From assembly GCA_044227985.1 (NCBI GenBank), contig JBGAVT010000005.1, positions 1-50,690 of the forward strand: 50,690 nucleotides of DNA, written 5' to 3'. A program made the position numbers and the translations under genes. This document shows positions 839 through 42,700 of the stretch, in pieces. This DNA comes from Candidatus Saccharimonadales bacterium (lineage in GTDB: Bacteria; Patescibacteriota; Saccharimonadia; Saccharimonadales; JAGPDM01). Position 1 is the stretch's first letter; every line of letters starts with the position of its first letter. The notes under the pieces are model-generated. The model did no database searches and was not told the DNA's origin. It saw only the letters and a program-made list of their open reading frames with translations.

Positions 839-1481
839 GTTGTATTAACTCCGCCAGTGGTTGTGCTAATGTTAGATGTGATTGCTCGTCAAAATGTATA
901 CCGTCAAGTCCGGCCTTTGCGACCGTGCTCGCATCAAAGAATAGCGAGCCAGTTTCACTGGCTACCCTTTGTATTTCAGTTGCCAGTTGTTTTGATTTTT
1001 CGGCAGACTGTTTATCGTATGTATCGTGATAGTATTCGTCAAATTTCGGAGCACTATCGTTTACATAAATTGGGCTTACTAATAAAATCTTTGTTTCTTG
1101 GGAAGTTTCTCGGACTGCGTCAATAAACGGTTTTAGTGCGTCAGCAATTTCGGTAACTGGTCGTGAATACTGAACTTTTAGATCATTTGTGCCTAACATA
1201 ATAACGACAATATCAGTCGGCGAGTGGCTAGTAAGGCAAGGTACAAAATATGTAAGTCCGTTGCGGGATGGCTTGTTGGGGTTGTAGTGTTCTAGGTCAG
1301 TTGTGCGTCCACCCAAGCCCTCCTCAATAACATAGTAGTTGTTACCCAAAAGTTCTTGTAGTTTCCCAGTCCAGCGAACATTTACAGGGTATCTGCTTCC
1401 TGTGTTTTTATCGTCATTTTGACCCCAAGTATTACTGTCGCCATAACATAAAACTACTTTTGCTTGTGGGTTCGTATTCAT
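831..1481 (-). CDS. SGNH/GDSL family hydrolase
   Basis: Blocks YGDSNTWG, EEGLGGRT, MLGTND and DGIH. Confidence 0.93.
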   Translation of the reverse strand: MNTNPQAKVVLCYGDSNTWGQNDDKNTGSRYPVNVRWTGKLQELLGNNYYVIEEGLGGRTTDLEHYNPNKPSRNGLTYFVPCLTSHSPTDIVVIMLGTNDLKVQYSRPVTEIADALKPFIDAVRETSQETKILLVSPIYVNDSAPKFDEYYHDTYDKQSAEKSKQLATEIQRVASETGSLFFDASTVAKAGLDGIHFDEQSHLTLAQPLAELIQHA

Positions 1482-15030: not shown

Positions 15031-15131
15031 AACTGCGCATTATAGCAGTTTTTTAAGCATATTAGAAGACTATTGGCATAAAATAAACTAGATAAGTATA
15101 CTCAAATAATAGATATCTAAAAAGGAAATAT

Positions 15132-15812
15132 ATGAAAAAAACTAACGGAAATAAATCAGAAATAAATATAGAGTGTAAACATCGTAAGTTCCACGTAGCG
15201 GTAATCATTCTCATCATTTCCATGGCTATATTGTTCGGATCTTGGCTGTATTATTTAACCTTAAATCTGCAACTTAACAGTATGAGCGATTTTTCACAGA
15301 TAATGACAGATGCGAGGTCAACTGCTCATAATATTTTCATTTCTGAACCAAAAATTATTGATGAAGAATTGAAGGAAATTCGGCTGCCAAAGGTTAGCGC
15401 ATCAATCCCACTAAACGAAAAAACGATAAACTTTTTGATGAAGTCTCAGGTATATCAACTTGATGGAACAAAGTCGGGAACAAAAGAAGTTCAAATAACA
15501 ACTGAGAATATATTTTCCTCCGCTTATGAGCTAAAGAACATAAATGACAATGCTGCTTTCAGATTATTCGAAAATAATAGACATCCTCTACCTGTGCCAG
15601 GTAAAACACAGTGCGCTGCAATCAGTATCTATGTCGGAGAGACAGAAAAAACTATTTTCAGTGGGAGTCCTCAGAAAATAGAACTCAGCAACGGCGGTAC
15701 TATCACTATCGATACACCCACAAAAGAATGCAAAAAATTTTATAAAGCCAAGGGTCTCAATCTAGATATTGCAGAAATTTTGCAGCAAGCTAAAAGTATT
15801 AAAACCTACTAA
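15132..15812 (+). CDS. Hypothetical single-pass membrane protein
   Basis: 226-aa ORF filling the gap, AAAGGA SD upstream, N-terminal TM helix. Confidence 0.75.
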   Translation: MKKTNGNKSEINIECKHRKFHVAVIILIISMAILFGSWLYYLTLNLQLNSMSDFSQIMTDARSTAHNIFISEPKIIDEELKEIRLPKVSASIPLNEKTINFLMKSQVYQLDGTKSGTKEVQITTENIFSSAYELKNINDNAAFRLFENNRHPLPVPGKTQCAAISIYVGETEKTIFSGSPQKIELSNGGTITIDTPTKECKKFYKAKGLNLDIAEILQQAKSIKTY

Positions 15813-15836
15813 TCTTCACTCTGGTATAATAAACTT

Positions 15837-16673
15837 ATGACAAAAATTGCAATTCAAGGCCAAGCCGGCTCATTCCATGACGCAGCACGATTAAAACTTT
15901 TTCCAAACAGTCAACTTGTCGAAGCTGATAGCTTTTATGAAGTTTTTGAAAAAGTTCTCAACGATGAGGTCGATGGTGGCGTAGTCGCAATTGAGAACTC
16001 AATCTATGGATCAATTAACGAGGTCTACGATTTGTTAATCAACAATGGCGATATCTGGATCACAGGTGAAGCTTACATCCACGTTAAACTTTCTCTTTTA
16101 GCAAACAAAGGGACCAAGATAGAAGATGTTAATATCGTTCGCTCTCATTCAATTGCATTAGCTGAGTCTAAGGAATTCCTTCGTAGTAACTTACCTAATT
16201 GCAGAACAGTAGCCACTACCGACACTGCAGTTGCAGCAGAACAACTCTCTAATAAGCCCAACGGATCGGAGGCTGTTGTTGCTTCGGTTGAACTAGCAAA
16301 ACGATACAACCTTGAGGTACTTCAGGAGAATATAGAGCATGTCAGCGAAAACTACACGCGCTTTATTAGTATTGGTAAACAAAAAGATACAGCAAAAAAT
16401 CCAAATAAAACATCCATTGCTATGTCACTCCCTGAACGACCTGGTTCGTTATATGAAGCTCTCGGACTATTTGCCCAACGCGATATAAATCTAAGTAAAC
16501 TAACCTCTCGTCCTATTCCAGAAAAAGCTTGGCAATATGTTTTCTATATCGACTTCGAAGCATCACTTTCAAACGCGCTCGGAGTGCTAGACGACTTAGC
16601 AGTTCGTGGCAGCAGCATAACAGTTCTTGGCAGTTATAACTCAACTAAACAAAACCCATCAATTGATGAATAG
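15837..16673 (+). CDS. pheA: Prephenate dehydratase (PDT + ACT domains)
   Basis: IENSIYGSI, NYTRF, PGSLYEAL and INLSKLTSRP motifs. Confidence 0.93.
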   Translation: MTKIAIQGQAGSFHDAARLKLFPNSQLVEADSFYEVFEKVLNDEVDGGVVAIENSIYGSINEVYDLLINNGDIWITGEAYIHVKLSLLANKGTKIEDVNIVRSHSIALAESKEFLRSNLPNCRTVATTDTAVAAEQLSNKPNGSEAVVASVELAKRYNLEVLQENIEHVSENYTRFISIGKQKDTAKNPNKTSIAMSLPERPGSLYEALGLFAQRDINLSKLTSRPIPEKAWQYVFYIDFEASLSNALGVLDDLAVRGSSITVLGSYNSTKQNPSIDE

Positions 16674-16899
16674 TTCCCACAAGAAAAAAATCAACAGATC
16701 ACTGACTCTCATATTGGGATGGATGCTTATTGTCGGCGGCGGAGTGCTAGGTTTAATACCCTTTCTACAGGGTTGGGTGTTAGGTTTAGCTGGTGCAATT
16801 ATATTAATAAAGACATACGGTCATGAACACCATTACGTTAAAAAAATAATCAATATAATGCCGAAAGAAATTCAAAAACAACTATTGAAAAAAATTTGA
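16666..16899 (+). CDS. Small two-TM membrane protein
   Basis: ATG overlaps the pheA end; hydrophobic hairpin GLIPFLQGW. Confidence 0.65.
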   Translation: MNSSHKKKINRSLTLILGWMLIVGGGVLGLIPFLQGWVLGLAGAIILIKTYGHEHHYVKKIINIMPKEIQKQLLKKI

Positions 16900-16913
16900 A
16901 TTAATTCAATCAA

Positions 16914-17885
16914 TTAATTAACGCTCCTGAAAAATTCTAGCATGGTGACTGAACCATTACTTATATGGTTAGAAAAGCTAGTATAGCGTGCGCCCGGCCA
17001 TCGATGTGGTAAGTCACTATAGCTAATTCTTTTGATTGTTTTGCCTTCAGCGCATTTCCAGAACTTAACTGATGTACTACCTTGAACTGACTCATTAGAC
17101 TCTTCTACTGGTTTAGCACTCAAGCATTGATCTGCACTCAACCATAGCTTAACCTCATCATCGAATGAGCGCCATACAAACTCACCATCATTATTTTTTG
17201 ATCCTCCATTAAACGGTATGGTTGAATCTTTCTCACCGTGGACTAATAGCATCGAAACTGGATGAGTAGGCTGACCGATTTTTCCTTTTTCATTTTCAAT
17301 TGCACCACTGAATGCGGCTCCAGCAGCGAACGTGTCAGGATGTTCCATCATTAATTTCTGCGTCATCATAGCTCCATTTGAAAATCCAGTAATAAAACGA
17401 TTTTCGGCAGCTATTCCATGGTCATCAGCGATCTTTTTACTCAGGCTATCAATGAATCCACTATCATCGGCACCTTCGACCCAGCCACCTCCGCAACAAA
17501 TAGCTACATTCCAGCCTTTTGGGCCCATCTTTTTAGCACGTAGACCTTCTGGGACCAGTACAATAATATTCTCTTTTTTCGCTAGATTTATCATACCGGT
17601 GTAATAAGAGATGAGTCGACCAGCGTCCGAATAACCGTGCAGCAAAACTACCATTTCAGTAGGCTTCTGTTTGTTGTCTGGAATAAAAACCCGATATTCT
17701 CGGTTGAACTCTCCATATTTCATGCGTGATGGCGACGATAAATAAAATGCTCGTTCGGTCGAAGTTAAAAAACCAAATACGGCGAATAGCACGATGCTAA
17801 AAACAATAACGATAATGAGTATTAACATTCGTTTTAGTGTAGCAAAAATCCGGGCATGATTAGAATTATTTTTTATCGATTTCAT
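16914..17885 (-). CDS. PHB depolymerase / LpqC-family esterase, membrane-anchored
   Basis: VLLHG, WNVAICCG, TGFSNGAMM, HGEKD and HRWPG motifs; start uncertain. Confidence 0.85.
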   Translation of the reverse strand: MKSIKNNSNHARIFATLKRMLILIIVIVFSIVLFAVFGFLTSTERAFYLSSPSRMKYGEFNREYRVFIPDNKQKPTEMVVLLHGYSDAGRLISYYTGMINLAKKENIIVLVPEGLRAKKMGPKGWNVAICCGGGWVEGADDSGFIDSLSKKIADDHGIAAENRFITGFSNGAMMTQKLMMEHPDTFAAGAAFSGAIENEKGKIGQPTHPVSMLLVHGEKDSTIPFNGGSKNNDGEFVWRSFDDEVKLWLSADQCLSAKPVEESNESVQGSTSVKFWKCAEGKTIKRISYSDLPHRWPGARYTSFSNHISNGSVTMLEFFRSVN

Positions 17886-29496: not shown

Positions 29497-30174
29497 TTAT
29501 TTACCTTTAAAGGCGCCGTCATCGATGAGATTTGAGATTGCTTCGGCAACGTAATCTCTTTCGGCTTGTCTCACCATCTCAGAAATTTTATCGGGACTTG
29601 CATCGTTTGGTAACTCCACTTGTCTCTGATAGACAACCTCACCCGTATCAAAATCTTCTTCAACACGATGCAGACTAAAGCCACTGATTCTTTCTTTTGC
29701 TTCAGATACGGCTTTATGGACAGATTGACCATACATTCCTTTTCCGCCATATTTTGGCAACAAAGCTGGATGTAGGTTGATGCTTCTACCTCTGTATTCT
29801 TCAACAACTTCAATAGGTATTTTTTTTAGATAACCTAGTTCAACTATAACGTTTACATCGTGCTCTTCCAGGATTTGATTTATAAAATCACCATCGCGCC
29901 AACGATCACAGCATATAATTTCAACAGGTACGTTATAGTTACGCGCTATACTAAGTACTCCCGCCTGAGGATTGTTAGTTATGATGACCGCTACATCTTT
30001 AGTCTCATCAGGAGTGAATCTTTGTAAAACTGTTTCGGCGGTCGAACCTTTTCCGCTAGCGAAGATTGCCAACCGATATTCAGCCTTGGTTTCTTTGCTT
30101 GGATTCTTTACTCCAAACATAAATTGTTTGAATGTACGTTTCTTCTGCTGTTTTTTTGAGGAGTCGCTAGACAT
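29497..30174 (-). CDS. purN: Phosphoribosylglycinamide formyltransferase-like protein
   Basis: IFASGKGST, INLHPALLPKYGGKGMYG and HRVEEDFDTG; start overlaps the alaS stop. Confidence 0.85.
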   Translation of the reverse strand: MSSDSSKKQQKKRTFKQFMFGVKNPSKETKAEYRLAIFASGKGSTAETVLQRFTPDETKDVAVIITNNPQAGVLSIARNYNVPVEIICCDRWRDGDFINQILEEHDVNVIVELGYLKKIPIEVVEEYRGRSINLHPALLPKYGGKGMYGQSVHKAVSEAKERISGFSLHRVEEDFDTGEVVYQRQVELPNDASPDKISEMVRQAERDYVAEAISNLIDDGAFKGK

Positions 30175-32083
30175 CGACAAGCTTTGCTTTAATACGGCGA
30201 ATACCTGAACTACTAGCTTGTTCTTTCGCAATCTTGAATCGCTTACCGCCGTCCGCAAGTTCAGATGTATTTTCTACATGAGGTCCACCGCAAATCTCAA
30301 AGCTAAATGGCTTCTCACCATCTATGCCCATTGTGTAGACTTTAACAATTTCTCCGTATCGATCACCGAATTTACCGAGAACACCTTTATCGAGCGCATC
30401 TTGTAACGGATACTCTTTCCACGATATTGGTAATTTGAGATTAATCTGTTCATTAACCATGTCTTCAACCCGTTGTAGCTGATCTTTTGTGACCTTTTCA
30501 GGGTGACTGAAGTCAAAGCGTAGTCGTTCTTCCGTGATGTTACTACCATGTTGGACAACATGATCACCGAGTTCTCTTCGTAAACTCTCATACATGAGGT
30601 GCGTAGCAGTGTGATATTTCTTATGAATCAAACTGTCACCACCGAGTCCACCCTTAAACTGACCCTTCGTTGCTGTTCGACTGCGCTCTCGCTGTTCATT
30701 CATAGCCGTTTCAAGCTCTTGCTGCCAGGTGCTTGAAAGTTGTGCGCCCTTTTGTTCGACAAGTTCTTTTGTGAGCTCCTTAGGGTAGCCATAAGTATCA
30801 TAAAGCTTAAAGACATCTGCACCAGTGAGTACTTTTTTACCCTCATCATCTAGTTTTTCAGAATGTTCGAGTATTTTTTCAACTTCTTTCTCGCCTTTGC
30901 GCAGAGTTCCGCGAAAAACCTTCTCCTCTTTTGATAAGATTCTACTAACCTCATCAGCTCGTTCGATAACGTCTGACATATCCTCATAAACTTCTACAAT
31001 TTTTGGTAAAATCTGAATAACTAAGTCATGCTCAATGCCGAGATCAAATGCGAATCGAATGGCACGCCGCATAAGTCGTCGTGCGACATAACCCTGCTCA
31101 TTATTGCTCGGCACCACACCATCAACTGCCATAAACATAGCGCCCTTTAGGTGATCAGCGATAACACGCATTGCTGGCTTATGATCATCATATTTCTTGC
31201 CAGTAATCTTTTCAAGTTCTTCAATGATCGGCCAAAAAAGACTAATTTTAAATACATCAGGCGTATCGAGTACGGCTGCTGCAATTCGCTCTAACCCCGA
31301 ACCATGATCGATGTTCTTGTGCTCAAGTGGCTCCATTCCGTTTTCGGTGCGGCGGTAGGCCATAAAGACATTATTGCCAATCTCAAAGAATCGCGAGCTA
31401 TCGCTAGCAGGATGAGCTTTGCCCCATTTCGCTTCATCGTGGTATTGCTCACCAAAGTCAAAAAACATTTCGGAATCTGGACCACAAGGATCACCCATCG
31501 GGGTCTTGTCTTCAGCACCGCCGCGGCTCCACCAATTTTCATTACCATCATAGAGAAAAATTCGACCACCTTGCATTCCAACTTTGTCGCCATTTTCAGC
31601 AGTACCGATATCAACAACTTCAGCGTTAATCCCACGTTTACTAAATTCAGTTTTCCAAAGCTCAATCGCTGGGTTGTCTTTTGGAATGTCGAGCTCGTCA
31701 TTTCCGATATAACAAGTCGCATAAACACGGCTCGGATCTAGACCAACCACGTCAAATAAAAACTCAGCAATCCAAGGAATCTGCTCAGCCTGAAAATAAT
31801 CACCCAGGCTCCAATTACCAAGCATTTCGAAGCTCGTCGTATGCGAATCATCACCAACTTCTTCGATGTCTTCAACACGGATACAGAGCTGCGAATTAAC
31901 TAGCCGATTTCCCTCAGGATGTTCTTCGCCAAGCAAGAACGGCACCATCGGCTGCATACCAGAACCCGTGAAAAGCGTCGTTGCATCTTCGCTTGGTACG
32001 ACATTTGCGCGAGGAACGATCACATGACCTTTATCTCTAAAGAATTCGAGATATTTCTGACGGATTTCTTGGGCGTTTATCAT
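30167..32083 (-). CDS. alaS: Alanine--tRNA ligase (short form, no C-Ala domain)
   Basis: TLFTGSGMQP, FEMLGNWSLGDY, GLERI, IADH, YDTYGYP, HTATH, CGGPHV; ends right after GIRRIKA. Confidence 0.96.
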   Translation of the reverse strand: MINAQEIRQKYLEFFRDKGHVIVPRANVVPSEDATTLFTGSGMQPMVPFLLGEEHPEGNRLVNSQLCIRVEDIEEVGDDSHTTSFEMLGNWSLGDYFQAEQIPWIAEFLFDVVGLDPSRVYATCYIGNDELDIPKDNPAIELWKTEFSKRGINAEVVDIGTAENGDKVGMQGGRIFLYDGNENWWSRGGAEDKTPMGDPCGPDSEMFFDFGEQYHDEAKWGKAHPASDSSRFFEIGNNVFMAYRRTENGMEPLEHKNIDHGSGLERIAAAVLDTPDVFKISLFWPIIEELEKITGKKYDDHKPAMRVIADHLKGAMFMAVDGVVPSNNEQGYVARRLMRRAIRFAFDLGIEHDLVIQILPKIVEVYEDMSDVIERADEVSRILSKEEKVFRGTLRKGEKEVEKILEHSEKLDDEGKKVLTGADVFKLYDTYGYPKELTKELVEQKGAQLSSTWQQELETAMNEQRERSRTATKGQFKGGLGGDSLIHKKYHTATHLMYESLRRELGDHVVQHGSNITEERLRFDFSHPEKVTKDQLQRVEDMVNEQINLKLPISWKEYPLQDALDKGVLGKFGDRYGEIVKVYTMGIDGEKPFSFEICGGPHVENTSELADGGKRFKIAKEQASSSGIRRIKAKLVDV

Positions 32084-38408: not shown

Positions 38409-40244
38409 TTATTTCTTTTTCTTAACTGGAATCGTTATCTTTGTGCCTTTAACATCGAGCAAGTCGCTATCTTCAACTCGTTCAATATTTCTATCTTTTG
38501 GATACAATCGGATATCATCGTGATTCGCACGCTTGCGAAGAGCCAATAAAAGCCAGGCAAGAACAACTACAAAGGCGAAAGTTACAATCATAGTCCAATA
38601 GACTACCGACGTTTTTGATTCGACAAAAACTTCTGAAAATTCACCATCAATACCGACGCCTAATGTAGTCTTGCTAGCATCGAAGGCATCACCGCCAAGA
38701 CTTAATTGGTAGCTGTGGAACCGTTGAAGCGGCGCTAGCGATCCTAGCTGGCGAAAACCAGATGAGGTTTCGAGCACCATTGCATCGACCACTTGACCGC
38801 TTGGCATATTGACCTTGCTGTACAGAATCGAGATACCCGGCAAAATCATGTATTTTTTTGAACTAAAATTATCTTTCTCAAACTTCGATGATTCAAGTTT
38901 TAAAGATTTGTATTCGATATCCCATTCAGCAGAATTATCAAAAATTGGCTCAACATCATTAGCACCCCATATTATGTTTGCAACATGGTCGAATAGAACA
39001 ACACCAAATGGAACTTCACCAGCTTTCATAAGCCCCGGATCGAAGGCTAGCCAACCATCATCGGGTGGGATAAATGCTTCAACCCATGCATGGGGAGATT
39101 TTTTCCCCATTGGGTCAACCTTCCAACCTGCTACCACTCGAGCTGGGATTCCTGCCTCTCGAAGTGCTGCGACTGTTTGATCGGCGTAATCAATACTTGT
39201 TGATGGCTTTTGTTTAGCACGTTCTTTTCTGGCTGAGAAATCTGCTTCGGGATTATATGCCTCTCCATCAGCAACTATGTTACTCGTAATTTTTTCAACT
39301 GCATTAACGACAGATCCTTTTCGTAGTTCTTCGCCGCTTAAACCAAGTTTTTTAAGTTGACCTTCACGCCAGATATCAGTGTTCTTTGTATAATCAGCCA
39401 CTATTTCTGAAGGTAATTGAGAGATTTGACCTTCAGATTCAGGATCAACAAATCCTTGTGTAATGTCTAGATCAACTTGTGTTTTTGTTGAAAAGTCTTG
39501 TTTTGGGAATAATCGATGAATCGCTTGAATATTACCATCTTTATCGATACGCATAGAGTTGGTATTAGGATCTATGCTCTTTACAAAAGATGCCTGCATG
39601 CTTGTATCGAGAGGTAGGATAGTTGTAATATTTTTCCACCAAAAAGAATCATTTTCGAGCCTTGATTCGAGTTTAAGAGTTGCCTGAACAGCCGACCCTT
39701 TCAGTAAAATAATTGGTTCTAGCTTATCGCTAGCCTGTTTGTAATTAAAAAACTGCCTATCGCCTTCGTAATCAGTTTCCGTTGGCTTTGAACCAATTGG
39801 ATTCATAATTTCATCGCCGGCAAGTAATATTTTTGTATCAACATTGCCGGAAAACGAAACAGGCGCTGCTACTACGATCTGTACTACTTCTTTAGTAAAT
39901 TCACGCCAGATGCCTTCTGATTGATATTCAATTACAATTTTTTCCTGTCCAGCAGTCGGCACTATTAACTGTCCATCCTTTTGCTCGGTATTAACTACAG
40001 GTGTTGTTCCAATCTCACCTTGAACTAAACCTAAAACTGGAAGACTAATGGTTTTTTCTGTTGTAATCCCAGTAATTGTTTGTGTGACTGTACTAGTTTT
40101 TTTGTCAATATCAATCGTCTGATTTAAATTTAGCGCAGGCTGAGACTGATTATTCTGTTTTCTTGATGCTTGAGCCTGTGTAGTAGACGGGAACAAAGCT
40201 AGTAATCCAACTGCTAAAAATAATAGACATAAGAATTTTTTCAT
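38409..40244 (-). CDS. Surface-anchored transglutaminase-like protein
   Basis: Signal peptide, LREAGIPARVVAG, HAWVE, WLAFDP and a C-terminal TM; Ser at the usual catalytic Cys position. Confidence 0.82.
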   Translation of the reverse strand: MKKFLCLLFLAVGLLALFPSTTQAQASRKQNNQSQPALNLNQTIDIDKKTSTVTQTITGITTEKTISLPVLGLVQGEIGTTPVVNTEQKDGQLIVPTAGQEKIVIEYQSEGIWREFTKEVVQIVVAAPVSFSGNVDTKILLAGDEIMNPIGSKPTETDYEGDRQFFNYKQASDKLEPIILLKGSAVQATLKLESRLENDSFWWKNITTILPLDTSMQASFVKSIDPNTNSMRIDKDGNIQAIHRLFPKQDFSTKTQVDLDITQGFVDPESEGQISQLPSEIVADYTKNTDIWREGQLKKLGLSGEELRKGSVVNAVEKITSNIVADGEAYNPEADFSARKERAKQKPSTSIDYADQTVAALREAGIPARVVAGWKVDPMGKKSPHAWVEAFIPPDDGWLAFDPGLMKAGEVPFGVVLFDHVANIIWGANDVEPIFDNSAEWDIEYKSLKLESSKFEKDNFSSKKYMILPGISILYSKVNMPSGQVVDAMVLETSSGFRQLGSLAPLQRFHSYQLSLGGDAFDASKTTLGVGIDGEFSEVFVESKTSVVYWTMIVTFAFVVVLAWLLLALRKRANHDDIRLYPKDRNIERVEDSDLLDVKGTKITIPVKKKK

Positions 40245-40249
40245 TCTTT

Positions 40250-40993
40250 TTATGATAGCAAAGCTATCGCCATGTTGCGACCTGTTTTTCCGTTATCGGC
40301 GCGGTAACTATAAAATTCATCCGATTCGTAACTACAAATATCAAGTGATTCAACCGTCGTAATTCCAGCATAACTAAGTTGTTTTCGGTTTATAGCTGCC
40401 AGATCAGCATGGTATGTTTCGCTGCCAATAGTATCTAGTCCGCTTGTAGCTCGGAGCAATCGCGCAGCATTACCACGAACCTCAAAATGGTTCTGGCAGA
40501 TGCAAGGACCAAGCACAGCTACTGCATTTTCTGATTTAAACCCGATAGAAACCATTTTTTCGACTGATTTATTAGTGATTCCCTTAACGCTTCCACGCCA
40601 ACCGGCATGAATAACTGATAGAACCTCCCCATCGCTGATAATAATTGGTAAACAATCTGCTACAGACAGAGCAATCGCCACATTCTTCTGTTTCGTCACA
40701 AGTCCGTCAACACCTTCGATTGTATCTGGTGAATCATTGGCAACCACTGAGATATCAGCACTATGTACTAAAGGTGCGAATCGGACTTTATCAACCCCAA
40801 AAATAGAAAGTATTTTTTGTCGATTTGATGCTACATTTGAGTCTAAATCATCAATATCGAATTTAACATTTAAACTATCAAAAGGAGCAGGGCTAGCTCC
40901 GCCGATGCTAGTAAAAAACCCATGTTTCACTCCAAGCTGGGATAACGATTCGCTCTCATACCATTTTAATCCATTTTTTTGCTTGGCAATCAT
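40250..40993 (-). CDS. pgeF: PgeF/YfiH family protein
   Basis: HGFFT, VHS, DGLVT, VADCLP, HAGWRG and FYSYR. Confidence 0.93.
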   Translation of the reverse strand: MIAKQKNGLKWYESESLSQLGVKHGFFTSIGGASPAPFDSLNVKFDIDDLDSNVASNRQKILSIFGVDKVRFAPLVHSADISVVANDSPDTIEGVDGLVTKQKNVAIALSVADCLPIIISDGEVLSVIHAGWRGSVKGITNKSVEKMVSIGFKSENAVAVLGPCICQNHFEVRGNAARLLRATSGLDTIGSETYHADLAAINRKQLSYAGITTVESLDICSYESDEFYSYRADNGKTGRNMAIALLS

Positions 40994-41010
40994 CGCTTCT
41001 ATGGTACACT
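40983..41010 (+). promoter_or_regulatory. Candidate promoter for the minihelix RNA, overlapping the divergent pgeF -10
   Basis: TTGGCA (40983-40988), 16-bp spacer ending TGG, TACACT (41005-41010). Confidence 0.5.
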
Positions 41011-41021
41011 ATATTTCGCAT

Positions 41022-41058
41022 GGGGCTTGAGATGGGTTCGCCCGTCTCAGCTCCACCA
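41022..41058 (+). ncRNA. tRNA-Ala/tmRNA-like minihelix RNA ending in ACCA
   Basis: GGGGCT-T-GAGATGGG-TTCG-CCCGTCTC-AGCTCC-ACCA: 14-bp hairpin with G.U at pair 3, discriminator A and encoded CCA. Confidence 0.6.
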
Positions 41059-41062
41059 GAAA

Positions 41063-41845
41063 TTATTTATTTTCGATTATTATTTTATACAATTCATACC
41101 ACTGCGCAAGGCTAAGCTCCTGCGCTCTTGCGTTTTCGTCAATATCTGTCAGCTCAAGTATCTGATCAATCTGTTGTTTTGGTATCTGCAAACCACCGCT
41201 CAAACTAGATCGAAGCTTTTTACGACGTGCTGAAAAACCAGCTCGTACAACTTGAAAGAATTGTTTTGTATCAACTCGTTGGAACCGAGGTTTCTCAAGA
41301 CGATTCAAAACAATAATTTGGCTATCAACTTTAGGAATGGGGTCGAAATGATCGGCGGGCACAACCTGCTTTAGCTCTGTGTCCGTGTAAAATTGGGCGC
41401 TGACACTTAGCATGCTCATAGCACCCGGTTTAGCTGCAATTCGCTCGGCAACCTCTTTTTGCATCAACAGAACCATCATCGATGGTGGATTTAGTGACTC
41501 CAGTAGCGTTCGAATTAGATGCGACGTCAAATAATACGGAATATTTGCGACAACCTTATAATTTTTTGGTAGTATTGTCGTGTCAAATTTTAAAATATCT
41601 TCATAAATAATTTCAAGATTGTTGGCACGGACTCGTTTCGGTAAAAGTCGGACCAGGTCTTCGTCGAGTTCAACCGCTATAACCCTAGAAGCTCTGTTGC
41701 AAAGTGGTTTTGTTAAAACACCTTCACCAGGTCCAACTTCAAGAACGACATCGTTCTTTGAAAGATTTCCAGCATCAACAACAGCCTGCAAACTGTTACG
41801 ATTAATTAACCAGTGTTGTCCAAGTGATTTCTTAGCCACGATCAA
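41063..41845 (-). CDS. rsmA: 16S rRNA adenine dimethyltransferase
   Basis: KKSLGQHWL, LEVGPGEG, VANIPYY, QKEVAER and PKVDS. Confidence 0.96.
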   Translation of the reverse strand: MIVAKKSLGQHWLINRNSLQAVVDAGNLSKNDVVLEVGPGEGVLTKPLCNRASRVIAVELDEDLVRLLPKRVRANNLEIIYEDILKFDTTILPKNYKVVANIPYYLTSHLIRTLLESLNPPSMMVLLMQKEVAERIAAKPGAMSMLSVSAQFYTDTELKQVVPADHFDPIPKVDSQIIVLNRLEKPRFQRVDTKQFFQVVRAGFSARRKKLRSSLSGGLQIPKQQIDQILELTDIDENARAQELSLAQWYELYKIIIENK

Positions 41846-42287
41846 ATACTTCTAAAGCTTTTTTAACAATTGTGCCCTCTTGTTTCGGCATCCGAGCAAG
41901 CAATTTGATCGCTTTATCACACGGCACGAATTTGCGCGAATCATGCTCCTCGTCAAGAATGCCACTATCACGTATTGGACGTGCTAGAAAATAATGAACG
42001 GTTTTTCGGCAATGCGTGCCATCAGGGTTAGTAAACTCATTGCAAATTGCATCAAGATAGAAATAGGCTTCAACTCTCCATCCACTCTCTTCCTCGGTTT
42101 CACGTTCTGCAGTTTGTACGAGTGTTTCGCTGGGCTCGAGCGTCCCTTTTGGTAGATGAAACCCACCTGGACTGCCATCCGGCTCAGTTTCACGAACGAG
42201 CAATAGCACTTCTCTTTGCTGATTAATCACAACACAACCAGCGCTAATATGAGCTGGCCATTCAAATCGTGAACGATAATTAATCAT
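41832..42287 (-). CDS. NUDIX hydrolase
   Basis: Nudix box GTLEPSETLVQTAERETEEESG. Confidence 0.92.
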   Translation of the reverse strand: MINYRSRFEWPAHISAGCVVINQQREVLLLVRETEPDGSPGGFHLPKGTLEPSETLVQTAERETEEESGWRVEAYFYLDAICNEFTNPDGTHCRKTVHYFLARPIRDSGILDEEHDSRKFVPCDKAIKLLARMPKQEGTIVKKALEVFDRG

Positions 42288-42700
42288 ACGTCGAGTAGCG
42301 GCAGACCAGCTTCGGCGTCTGGGGTGCGTATTAATTCGTCACTTAAAATAATCCTAACCTCAACAGTAGCTCCAACAATAATATTTTTAACATGTCCGCC
42401 GTAGGCTTTATTTTGCATATTTGTGATAACTGCATGCATGTGAATAATTGGCTGCGTCTCAAACCAAGCAATATTCCCTTGAAGGCTAACCAGTTCAACC
42501 GCATTCTTGACGGCTCGAAAGATATATTTTTTTCGTTTAAGATTGTAGTAACCTACTGTGGCTTTTTGGACACCGCCAATCCCTTGAATAAATGCACCAC
42601 GAATTTCTTTGTCAACAATAAACTGCTCAAGTTGATCATTAACATTCTCACCAGTCTCTAAACGCAACAGGTAACCATCTTTAATTTCTTTATACTTCAT
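42284..42700 (-). CDS. PPC-domain protein (DUF296)
   Basis: GIGG, ELVSLQGNI, HMH and GGHV motifs. Confidence 0.9.
   Translation of the reverse strand: MKYKEIKDGYLLRLETGENVNDQLEQFIVDKEIRGAFIQGIGGVQKATVGYYNLKRKKYIFRAVKNAVELVSLQGNIAWFETQPIIHMHAVITNMQNKAYGGHVKNIIVGATVEVRIILSDELIRTPDAEAGLPLLDV

Follow-up and report, generated by a model that had tools for sequence, protein, structure and literature searches.

A candidate natural minihelix-Ala gene in Saccharimonadales and its possible link to Fem-type transferases

The hairpin between pgeF and rsmA

The subject of this analysis is a short hairpin encoded in a 50,690-nt stretch of DNA from a Candidatus Saccharimonadales bacterium (contig JBGAVT010000005.1 of assembly GCA_044227985.1), which we call the window. 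The genome of the window is denoted G000, other genomes G001 and so on, loci Lnnn, and the contigs of G000 Cn. The hairpin lies at 41022–41058 on the plus strand (37 nt, GGGGCTTGAGATGGGTTCGCCCGTCTCAGCTCCACCA) and takes up most of a 69-nt gap (40994–41062) between a gene of the YfiH/PgeF family (Cu-oxidase_4; 40250–40993) and rsmA/ksgA (RrnaAD; 41063–41845), both assigned with Pfam and both on the minus strand. It is divergent from pgeF, a head-to-head placement already given in a preliminary description of the window made from the letters alone, and convergent with rsmA, which is also its neighbour in G001, G002, L365 and L380. The case for a minihelix RNA gene at these coordinates draws on the fold, the strand asymmetry, the single copy, and the conservation and covariation in relatives.

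RNAfold gives a single hairpin with 14 pairs, a UUCG loop and an unpaired ACCA tail. The outer helix has six pairs, including G41024.U41052, which corresponds to G3.U70 of tRNA-Ala; it is followed by one bulged base, U41028 (position 7), and by an inner stem of 8 bp that includes U41033.G41044. These are the pairs, bulge, loop and tail of the preliminary description, and the strand specificity it claimed was also borne out: the plus strand folds at −24.2 kcal/mol (z = −4.96), with none of 200 shuffles folding as well, compared with −15.2 kcal/mol (z = −2.2) and 7 of 200 shuffles as good for the minus strand. With its G1-C72-type acceptor end, discriminator A and encoded CCA, the hairpin carries, by sequence and predicted fold, the whole identity set of the alanyl-tRNA synthetase (AlaRS), namely, G3.U70, A73, G1-C72, G2-C71 and the 3′ CCA, a statement about determinants only. 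Pattern search and covariance model find one copy in the genome, and likewise one each in G001 and G002, which is not the distribution of a REP/MITE-like repeat.

Known classes of structured RNA do not account for this locus. ARAGORN reports neither a tRNA nor a tmRNA anywhere in the window, and an Rfam search of 40700–41400 at E ≤ 10 returns nothing relevant and no tRNA, tmRNA or leader match. Together with the fold, a single stem with a 4-nt loop rather than a cloverleaf, these searches agree with the earlier statement that there is no D arm, anticodon arm or tmRNA tag. A riboswitch or T-box leader is not indicated either, as Rfam gives no match and the hairpin points towards the 3′ end of rsmA rather than into a gene start. 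Similarly, a scan for intrinsic terminators flags no site at 41022–41075 on either strand: the minus strand has no U-run after the stem, and on the plus strand ACCAGAAA stands between the stem and a U-rich stretch. On the plus strand, the hairpin may still serve as its own terminator.

Upstream, a consensus scan finds a promoter-like site at 40983–41010 on the plus strand, the same extended −10 candidate that had been pointed out before, with TTGGCA at 40983–40988, a 16-nt spacer, and TACACT at 41005–41010 preceded by TG; its function as a promoter is putative. The −35 element overlaps the first codons of pgeF on the opposite strand, and 11 nt separate the end of the −10 hexamer from G41022. 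This interval is a 5′ leader (41011–41021, plus strand) that ends in CAT, with U at −1, and would presumably be removed by RNase P; the leaders of close relatives likewise end in CAT, mostly ACAT. Downstream, a U-rich 3′ trailer (41059–41075, plus strand), unflagged by the terminator scan, may act as the unit's own terminator. Its GAAAT pairs with ATTTC of the leader and lengthens the helix, the U-rich run comes next, and the fold of 41010–41075 has −28.2 kcal/mol (z = −6.1).

Conservation at the rsmA locus and across the order

The prediction gained from comparison with relatives: at the rsmA–pgeF spacer, other genera have the hairpin too, in one orientation or the other and with compensatory substitutions. 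It is identical in G001, of the same genus. G002, of another genus, and the metagenome locus L380 carry one common variant with four changes relative to the window, which has C-G for U33.G44, G.U for G35-C42 and the loop CUUG for UUCG. L365 differs at four bases, which make up two compensatory exchanges, G-C for A-U and U-A for G-C; the eight differences in L390 comprise three pairs with both bases changed and two with G.U in place of G-C. At the rsmA locus of G002, L365 and L380, RsmA identity is only 49–56%, and the flanking DNA is unalignable. In an alignment of seven sequences (A1), each of the 98 cells is paired, and 7 of the 14 pairs differ in both bases; the sequences were hand-chosen as good hairpins, which makes the 100% pairing partly a selection effect, and the independent comparison is the syntenic rsmA locus only (window, G002/L380 and L365). 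Pair counts are from A1 only, the covariance-model alignments A2 and A3, with low scorers in insert columns and tRNA fragments, being left unused. Neither the pattern nor the covariance model matches a hairpin in G003 (81% complete), the fourth genome of this family in the collection.

In G002, L365 and L380, the hairpin stands just after rsmA, in the same direction, with pgeF downstream, and in G000 and G001, the whole unit, including its tail, is inverted. This inversion makes a role in the rsmA message hard to uphold. The close relatives all have a −10-like box 11–12 nt upstream of G1, and in G002, L365, L380 and L390, an intrinsic terminator lies downstream of the hairpin. In G002, L365 and L380, the box overlaps the stop codon of rsmA and may therefore be fortuitous. 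The spacer itself varies in content: in G002, a gene for a PepE-like dipeptidase of 235 aa (L013 748–1455, minus strand) lies between the hairpin and pgeF, and in L365, a gap of similar size (between 7544 and 8766) is found at the place of this insertion.

Beyond the rsmA locus, we searched 401 Saccharimonadales genomes with the pattern GGGGM-N14-32-KCTCCACCA, which replaced an earlier, looser pattern dominated by the T-arm and acceptor ends of tRNA-Ala and tmRNA. There were 136 rows in 112 of the 401 genomes, and 134 of these were analysed, the two rows from the unpublished genomes G035 and G280 being left out. Folding was performed with the four terminal pairs forced, and the expectation was taken from interior shuffles. 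The results show that 41 of the 134 matches fold at −14 kcal/mol or below, compared with 8.5 expected, and 22 at −18 kcal/mol or below, compared with 1.45 expected. The curated family has 37 hairpins in 36 genomes, reached from 47 single hairpins at −13 or below by removing 10 by eye as irregular (L079, L097, L110, L111, L121, L153, L164, L175, L188 and L189, which are long or irregular and have a G+C-rich, coding-like context); the register-shifted borderline cases L076, L092, L093 and L194 were also excluded from the members. Members are 30–38 nt long with 10–14 pairs, and 31 of the 37 have loops of four bases (UUCG in 8, UUUA in 5, GCAA in 4, UUAC in 4, CUUG in 2, and others). Several share the shape of 6 pairs, a bulged base and 8 pairs despite different sequence. 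pgeF is a neighbour only in the closest relatives and most members are located elsewhere, and the special link to pgeF that had been suggested therefore did not hold.

Gene-like signals set the 37 curated members apart from 73 matches that do not fold. A −10 box 5–14 nt upstream was found for 22 of 37 members versus 10 of 73 non-hairpin matches, an intrinsic terminator within ~60 nt for 14 of 37 versus 2 of 73, a tRNA gene on the same strand, no more than 150 nt away, for 8 of 37 versus 1 of 73, and U at −1 for 30 of 37 versus 29 of 73. Furthermore, seven members sit in tRNA-Ile/tRNA-Ala clusters, and three hairpin loci have rRNA genes on the same strand, in the order 16S, tRNA-Ile, hairpin, tRNA-Ala, 23S (L135); 16S, tRNA-Ala, hairpin, tRNA-Ile (L080); and tRNA-Ala, hairpin, tRNA-Ile, second hairpin, 23S (L088). 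Placed in this way in an rRNA operon, the hairpin must belong to the rRNA precursor, in the usual place of a tRNA. From the fold, the conservation and these signals, we regard it as likely that the hairpin is a real RNA gene under selection.

Some loci have features of their own. The two minihelices in the single cluster of L088 differ from each other (1151–1187 and 1271–1306, minus strand). The arrangement tRNA-Ala, hairpin, tRNA-Ile also occurs on the strand opposite to the flanking rRNA, with 16S and 23S in L058 and with 23S in L047. In L094, L156 and L192, which form one subtype, a second small leader hairpin precedes G1, with the arms CGTTC...GAACG or CGCTTT...AAAGCG.

Is the wobble pair itself favoured, and at position 3? 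Control patterns were run on the same 401 genomes, with all counts taken for N 16–24. With G3.U70, 36 of 82 matches fold at −14 or below, compared with 5 of 27 for the G3-C70 control. When the wobble was moved to G2.U71, which keeps the same composition, the pattern matched 61 times. Of the 30 stored matches, the best has −13.8, short of the −14 threshold, and inspection by eye of the other 31 rows showed none that reaches it. Judged from these sequence counts, in which only two control patterns bear on selection for G3.U70, the wobble is favoured over the more stable G-C pair and at position 3 only, as recognition by AlaRS predicts and unlike what would be expected of a plain hairpin. One genome, G093, has three ACCA-tailed hairpins without G3.U70 (L218, L245 and L276), two with G3-C70 and one with G2.U71, which may be minihelices of other identity or decayed copies.

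The family appears to be mainly a feature of Saccharimonadales, as far as the pattern can tell. In an outside-order sample of 301 Patescibacteria genomes, 286 of them beyond Saccharimonadales, there were ~60 matches; among 31 matches in 30 stored loci, two reach −14 (L318 and L325), and L317, which is U-rich downstream, is a further candidate. A metagenome scan matched at least 120 stretches, of which 80 were made into loci. Among these 80, 76 are background or irregular hairpins in G+C-rich contigs, L333 folds well in a G+C-rich context and was not counted, and L365, L380 and L390 are relatives of the hairpin.

Putative alanine charging and the FemAB-containing cluster

The window also encodes an AlaRS of 638 aa (30170–32083, minus strand) with a class II catalytic domain and tRNA_SAD, which would be the charging enzyme. 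The C-Ala (DHHA1) domain is absent from this protein, a separate C-Ala gene not having been searched for. This is the rule among its best 120 homologues: PF01411 is present in 120 of 120 and PF07973 in 119 of 120, DHHA1 is found in none, 119 of the 120 have 626–684 aa, and the named ones are almost all from Saccharibacteria. According to the accessible parts of two papers, C-Ala is the module that binds L-shaped tRNA-Ala at its elbow (PMC8887476, PMC10036535). An AlaRS without C-Ala should therefore depend mainly on the acceptor arm, which is all that the hairpin offers. We consider alanylation of the hairpin RNA somewhat more probable than not. A second protein of the genome has AlaRS-like parts: an unusual fusion of 680 aa (C12:~15037–17076; L449 130–2169, plus strand) that combines an Asp/Lys/Asn-type class II core (PF00152) with an AlaRS-like segment (PF01411 positions 478–551) and a tRNA_SAD editing-type domain.

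Where would the alanine go? When the open reading frames (ORFs) flanking the hairpins were clustered, a divergent murF-like Mur ligase was found directly downstream in 12 loci and an ORF of unknown function upstream in 8. Longer stretches were examined for 16 loci. Nine of these (L450–L458, from 9 genomes in 4 families) hold, in this order, the upstream ORF, the hairpin, the murF-like ligase, an alpha/beta hydrolase, a DegT-family aminotransferase and a FemAB-family transferase, followed in 7 of the 9 by a polysaccharide deacetylase. The FemAB protein in these nine is 48–55% identical to the product of the G000 gene at C36:21343–22368 and is encoded ~3.2 kb downstream of the hairpin. A tenth locus, L461, has the same cluster on a contig that ends ahead of the FemAB position. 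The cluster of L456, from G361, is collinear with the others except for its inverted hairpin. G000 itself has the cluster at C36:18120–22368, with 37–49% identity to the G012 proteins, and three FemAB-family genes, the one on C36 and two paralogues. According to the accessible part of its report, FemXWv takes L-Ala from acylated helices that mimic tRNA-Ala's acceptor arm, with G2-C71 as the main determinant (PMC2655667), and the part available for Staphylococcus aureus states that this bacterium has "non-proteogenic" tRNA-Gly species set aside for the use of Fem enzymes (PMC7826273). Among the uses proposed in the preliminary description, the Fem-type thus gains support from nine related loci in which the hairpin heads a FemAB-holding cluster. 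MprF-type lipid alanylation is not supported, as the genome, which is 90% complete, has no match to PF09924, the MprF C-domain.

On the observed structure, strand bias, conservation and covariation, gene-like signals, position-specific wobble and linkage to the Fem cluster in relatives, we put at roughly 0.5 the probability that the hairpin is a natural minihelix-Ala gene, that is, an alanine tRNA acceptor arm only, of a family in Saccharimonadales, probably feeding a Fem-type transferase. The stand-alone tRNA-Ala-like minihelix first described at this locus thus survives through the conservation, the family contexts and the position-3 wobble, and has shed the split tmRNA, MprF and pgeF ideas attached to it. 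The hairpin would be transcribed from its own promoter and, in other genomes, within tRNA and rRNA operons; RNase P would remove the leader of a few nucleotides before G1; the 3′ end would be trimmed down to the encoded CCA; AlaRS would alanylate the hairpin through G3.U70 and A73; and the alanine would be passed to the FemAB-family aminoacyl-transferase of the cell-envelope cluster. Having no anticodon, the hairpin cannot decode and would therefore hold alanine outside translation. The last of these steps, the role of a Fem-type alanine donor, is proposed tentatively, at somewhat less than even odds. Equally tentative, and if anything a little more doubtful, is the whole carrier system, matured by tRNA-processing enzymes, charged by the C-Ala-less AlaRS, spent by FemAB on the envelope, and gained, moved and inverted repeatedly.

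The link to FemAB was also examined across 16 genomes picked by completeness and family before FemAB was looked at. Of the 9 hairpin-bearing genomes, 8 have FemAB, compared with 2 of the 7 hairpin-less ones (two-sided Fisher test, p = 0.035), in a sample whose small size (16), non-independent relatives and restricted sense of "hairpin-less" (no match to the restricted pattern only) are the first of several points that weigh against a minihelix-Ala gene feeding a Fem enzyme. Within-family contrasts are concordant in f8, f10 and f21, and f50 is mixed (G374 has both, G052 neither and G390 the hairpin without FemAB). G390, which is 98% complete, has a hairpin but no FemAB match, and the two hairpin-less genomes with FemAB depart from the association in the other direction. 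In G000, the hairpin stands away from the Fem cluster, and only 23 nt precede the murF-like gene on C36. The loops are tetraloops, not T-loops, and the elbow contacts used by RNase P are therefore absent. In at least eight loci, the order of promoter, hairpin, terminator and operon also fits a regulatory leader. As GGGG...CUCC-ACCA was fixed in the search, family-wide conservation of G3.U70, A73 and CCA is uncountable, and the removal of members by eye enters into the family's size. About 5–7 tidy G3-C70 hairpins with ACCA exist, two of which (L218 and L236) are followed by terminator-like hairpins; the class may thus not be purely alanine-specific. Finally, expression was looked at in four runs, all as Logan contigs. 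Two "RNA?" runs look like DNA, and two of their contigs derive from a G002-like organism; the sole true metatranscriptome contig in the window (40432–40612) lies inside pgeF and is uninformative for the hairpin.

Alternative explanations and known RNAs

Could the hairpin be a part or a relative of tmRNA? The assembly (1.07 Mb, 41.5% G+C, 38 contigs), whose DNA is present in wastewater and sludge metagenomes, has a standard one-piece tmRNA of 432 nt at C3:29160–29591 (Rfam RF00023, 88.6 bits, whole model, positions 1–374) and encodes SmpB on C11. ARAGORN finds 41 tRNA genes, with CCA encoded in 40, including tRNA-Ala(UGC) and tRNA-Ala(GGC). Since tmRNA, SmpB and two tRNA-Ala genes exist, the hairpin is no stand-in for a missing tmRNA or tRNA-Ala, and the full one-piece tmRNA with SmpB disposes of the suggestion of a split-tmRNA acceptor half. 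As a candidate in its own right, a two-piece or one-piece tmRNA at the locus was rejected, with no match there and the standard tmRNA elsewhere. Among the tRNA genes, tRNA-Asn (C38:43734–43807) is the single one of the 41 without encoded CCA, and identical tRNA-Lys(UUU) genes occur on two contigs (C10:14998–15074 and C31:2679–2755).

The first 6 and last 11 bases of the hairpin are those of the genome's tmRNA (5′-terminal GGGGCT and 3′-terminal CAGCTCCACCA), not of either tRNA-Ala. In L203, a full tmRNA gene lies convergent ~75 nt after rsmA, the place and orientation of the window hairpin, and in L202, tmRNA lies 1.3 kb downstream of rsmA. ARAGORN missed the tmRNA in G000, L203 and L202, where Rfam finds it at full length (3340–3745 in L203 and 4606–4999 in L202). 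The tmRNA-like acceptor end and the tmRNA beside rsmA in L203 suggest that the tmRNA-like hairpin subtype may have arisen from a copy of ssrA, an origin that leaves unexplained the presence of this subtype at the murF-like locus as well (L390, L457 and L458). The same shared ends, and the same tmRNA genes near rsmA, would suit a functionless remnant, either ssrA or tRNA-Ala after an internal deletion or the att scar of a mobile element; the preliminary description had allowed for the scar. We hold this to be very unlikely. A scar would copy the 3′ part only, but here the match to ssrA at that end is limited to 11 bases, and the 5′ strand is present and conserved across genera. The 8-bp inner stem and UUCG loop match no part of tmRNA, only pair-preserving changes have accrued across genera whose RsmA proteins are ~50% identical, and the murF-like locus has the same sequence type. 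The five ORFs flanking the hairpin are ordinary genes by Pfam and none is an integrase, although no integrase search was made. A common acceptor end would also be expected of a minimal tmRNA-like rescue RNA, which, once alanylated, would move into stalled ribosomes and take over the nascent chain but add no tag; jakobid mitochondrial tmRNAs, which are said to lack the mRNA-like part, offer a parallel. This is highly improbable given the complete tmRNA and SmpB of the genome and the acceptor sequences of most family members, which are unlike tmRNA. In addition, SmpB binds the D-loop/T-loop elbow, and the hairpin has no such elbow.

The hairpin may instead be a real tRNA-Ala-like RNA that acts as a regulator or decoy. 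It might titrate AlaRS, EF-Tu, the CCA-adding enzyme or RNase P or report on one of them or, in a variant, sequester factors whose target is the acceptor end of tRNA-Ala or tmRNA. The structural and comparative evidence set out above serves this explanation equally, the identity of the acceptor end with that of tmRNA suits it, and it accommodates G390, with its hairpin and no FemAB match. Nothing indicates a particular target, however, and a general decoy does not predict the murF-like/DegT/FemAB linkage (10 loci, 9 with FemAB in view); we consider it unlikely. A cis-acting element, which in relatives would be the leader or attenuator of the murF-like/FemAB operon and in the window an intergenic stability or termination hairpin, seems less likely again. 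It would account for the promoter-like box, hairpin, terminator and same-strand murF-like gene of at least eight loci and for G002, L365 and L380, where the hairpin comes after the stop codon of rsmA, on the strand of that gene, and this codon overlaps the "−10 box". On the other hand, G000/G001 and G361 (L136/L456) have the unit turned round with respect to its neighbours, with its sequence kept, and hairpins also stand among the tRNA genes of rRNA operons. The rsmA-sense strand folds much more weakly and has no U-run after it, the terminator scan is silent on both strands, and there is no Rfam leader match. Moreover, a plain hairpin leaves the position-specific G.U and the ACCA tail unexplained.

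How would a minihelix-Ala gene relate to known RNAs? Minihelices charged by AlaRS, from the Schimmel laboratory, are a classic bench model of how tRNA arose and of the "second genetic code" in the acceptor stem, and to our knowledge, they were previously known only as laboratory constructs. Small non-decoding RNAs made by tRNA-processing enzymes, such as mascRNA and the Bacillus cereus pseudo-tRNA "tRNA-Other", keep a cloverleaf-like fold; the present RNA, in contrast, is a plain hairpin with the complete alanine identity set. With the tRNA-like domain of tmRNA (RF00023), it shares the acceptor end of the G000 tmRNA, the alanine identity and, in a relative, the position beside rsmA, but it has no mRNA-like domain, pseudoknots or D-loop analogue and measures 37 nt versus 432 nt. 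Natural minihelix genes are undescribed in Rfam and in the full-text literature found, a coverage outside which subscription journals and supplements fall.

As described in the accessible parts of two papers, synthetic minihelix-Ala and microhelix-Ala are likewise single hairpins with the acceptor end of tRNA-Ala only (G3.U70, A73 and CCA) (PMC11392972, PMC11229368), and the 12–14 pairs of the hairpin come near the length of stacked acceptor and T stems. The synthetic minihelices were built in the laboratory and have a T-arm with a 7-nt T-loop, whereas the hairpin is genome-encoded and conserved, with a tetraloop, a bulged U at position 7 and putative charging. The helix substrates of FemXWv resemble it in that L-Ala is transferred from acceptor-arm mimics whose determinant, G2-C71, is present in the hairpin; that work was performed in vitro with the Weissella enzyme, its accessible part proposes no natural helix donor (PMC2655667), and the Saccharibacteria FemAB proteins are known here from sequence. 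By analogy, the function of the hairpin most likely resembles that of the non-proteogenic tRNA-Gly of S. aureus, which, in the part of the source at hand, feeds FmhB/FemA/FemB as a carrier apart from translation for the synthesis of cell-wall peptides (PMC7826273). The S. aureus tRNA-Gly is a full cloverleaf with an anticodon, discriminated via its D and T arms, whereas the hairpin has alanine identity and no D, anticodon or T arms. As an incomplete tRNA, it is not a member of the non-proteogenic tRNAs, and the likeness is one of function only, supported by the FemAB linkage. The known kind is thus the aminoacyl-carrier RNA kept for non-ribosomal use, and the new element would be its reduction to the bare acceptor arm.

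If the hairpin is made and charged, anticodon-less adaptors exist in living bacteria, ultra-small episymbionts could keep their envelope chemistry from competing with translation for Ala-tRNA, and the FemAB-type enzymes and C-Ala-less AlaRS of Saccharibacteria gain a defined substrate. It would be a non-ribosomal "operational-code" adaptor built from the part of tRNA long proposed as its oldest half, and a textbook model substrate would become a natural gene class, one that tRNA finders and Rfam currently miss.

The remaining features near the hairpin are protein genes. On the minus strand, 38409–40244 encodes a transglutaminase-core protein of 611 aa whose N-terminus looks like a signal peptide by eye, and 42284–42700 encodes a protein with a PCC domain. 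At its start, rsmA overlaps with a NUDIX gene.

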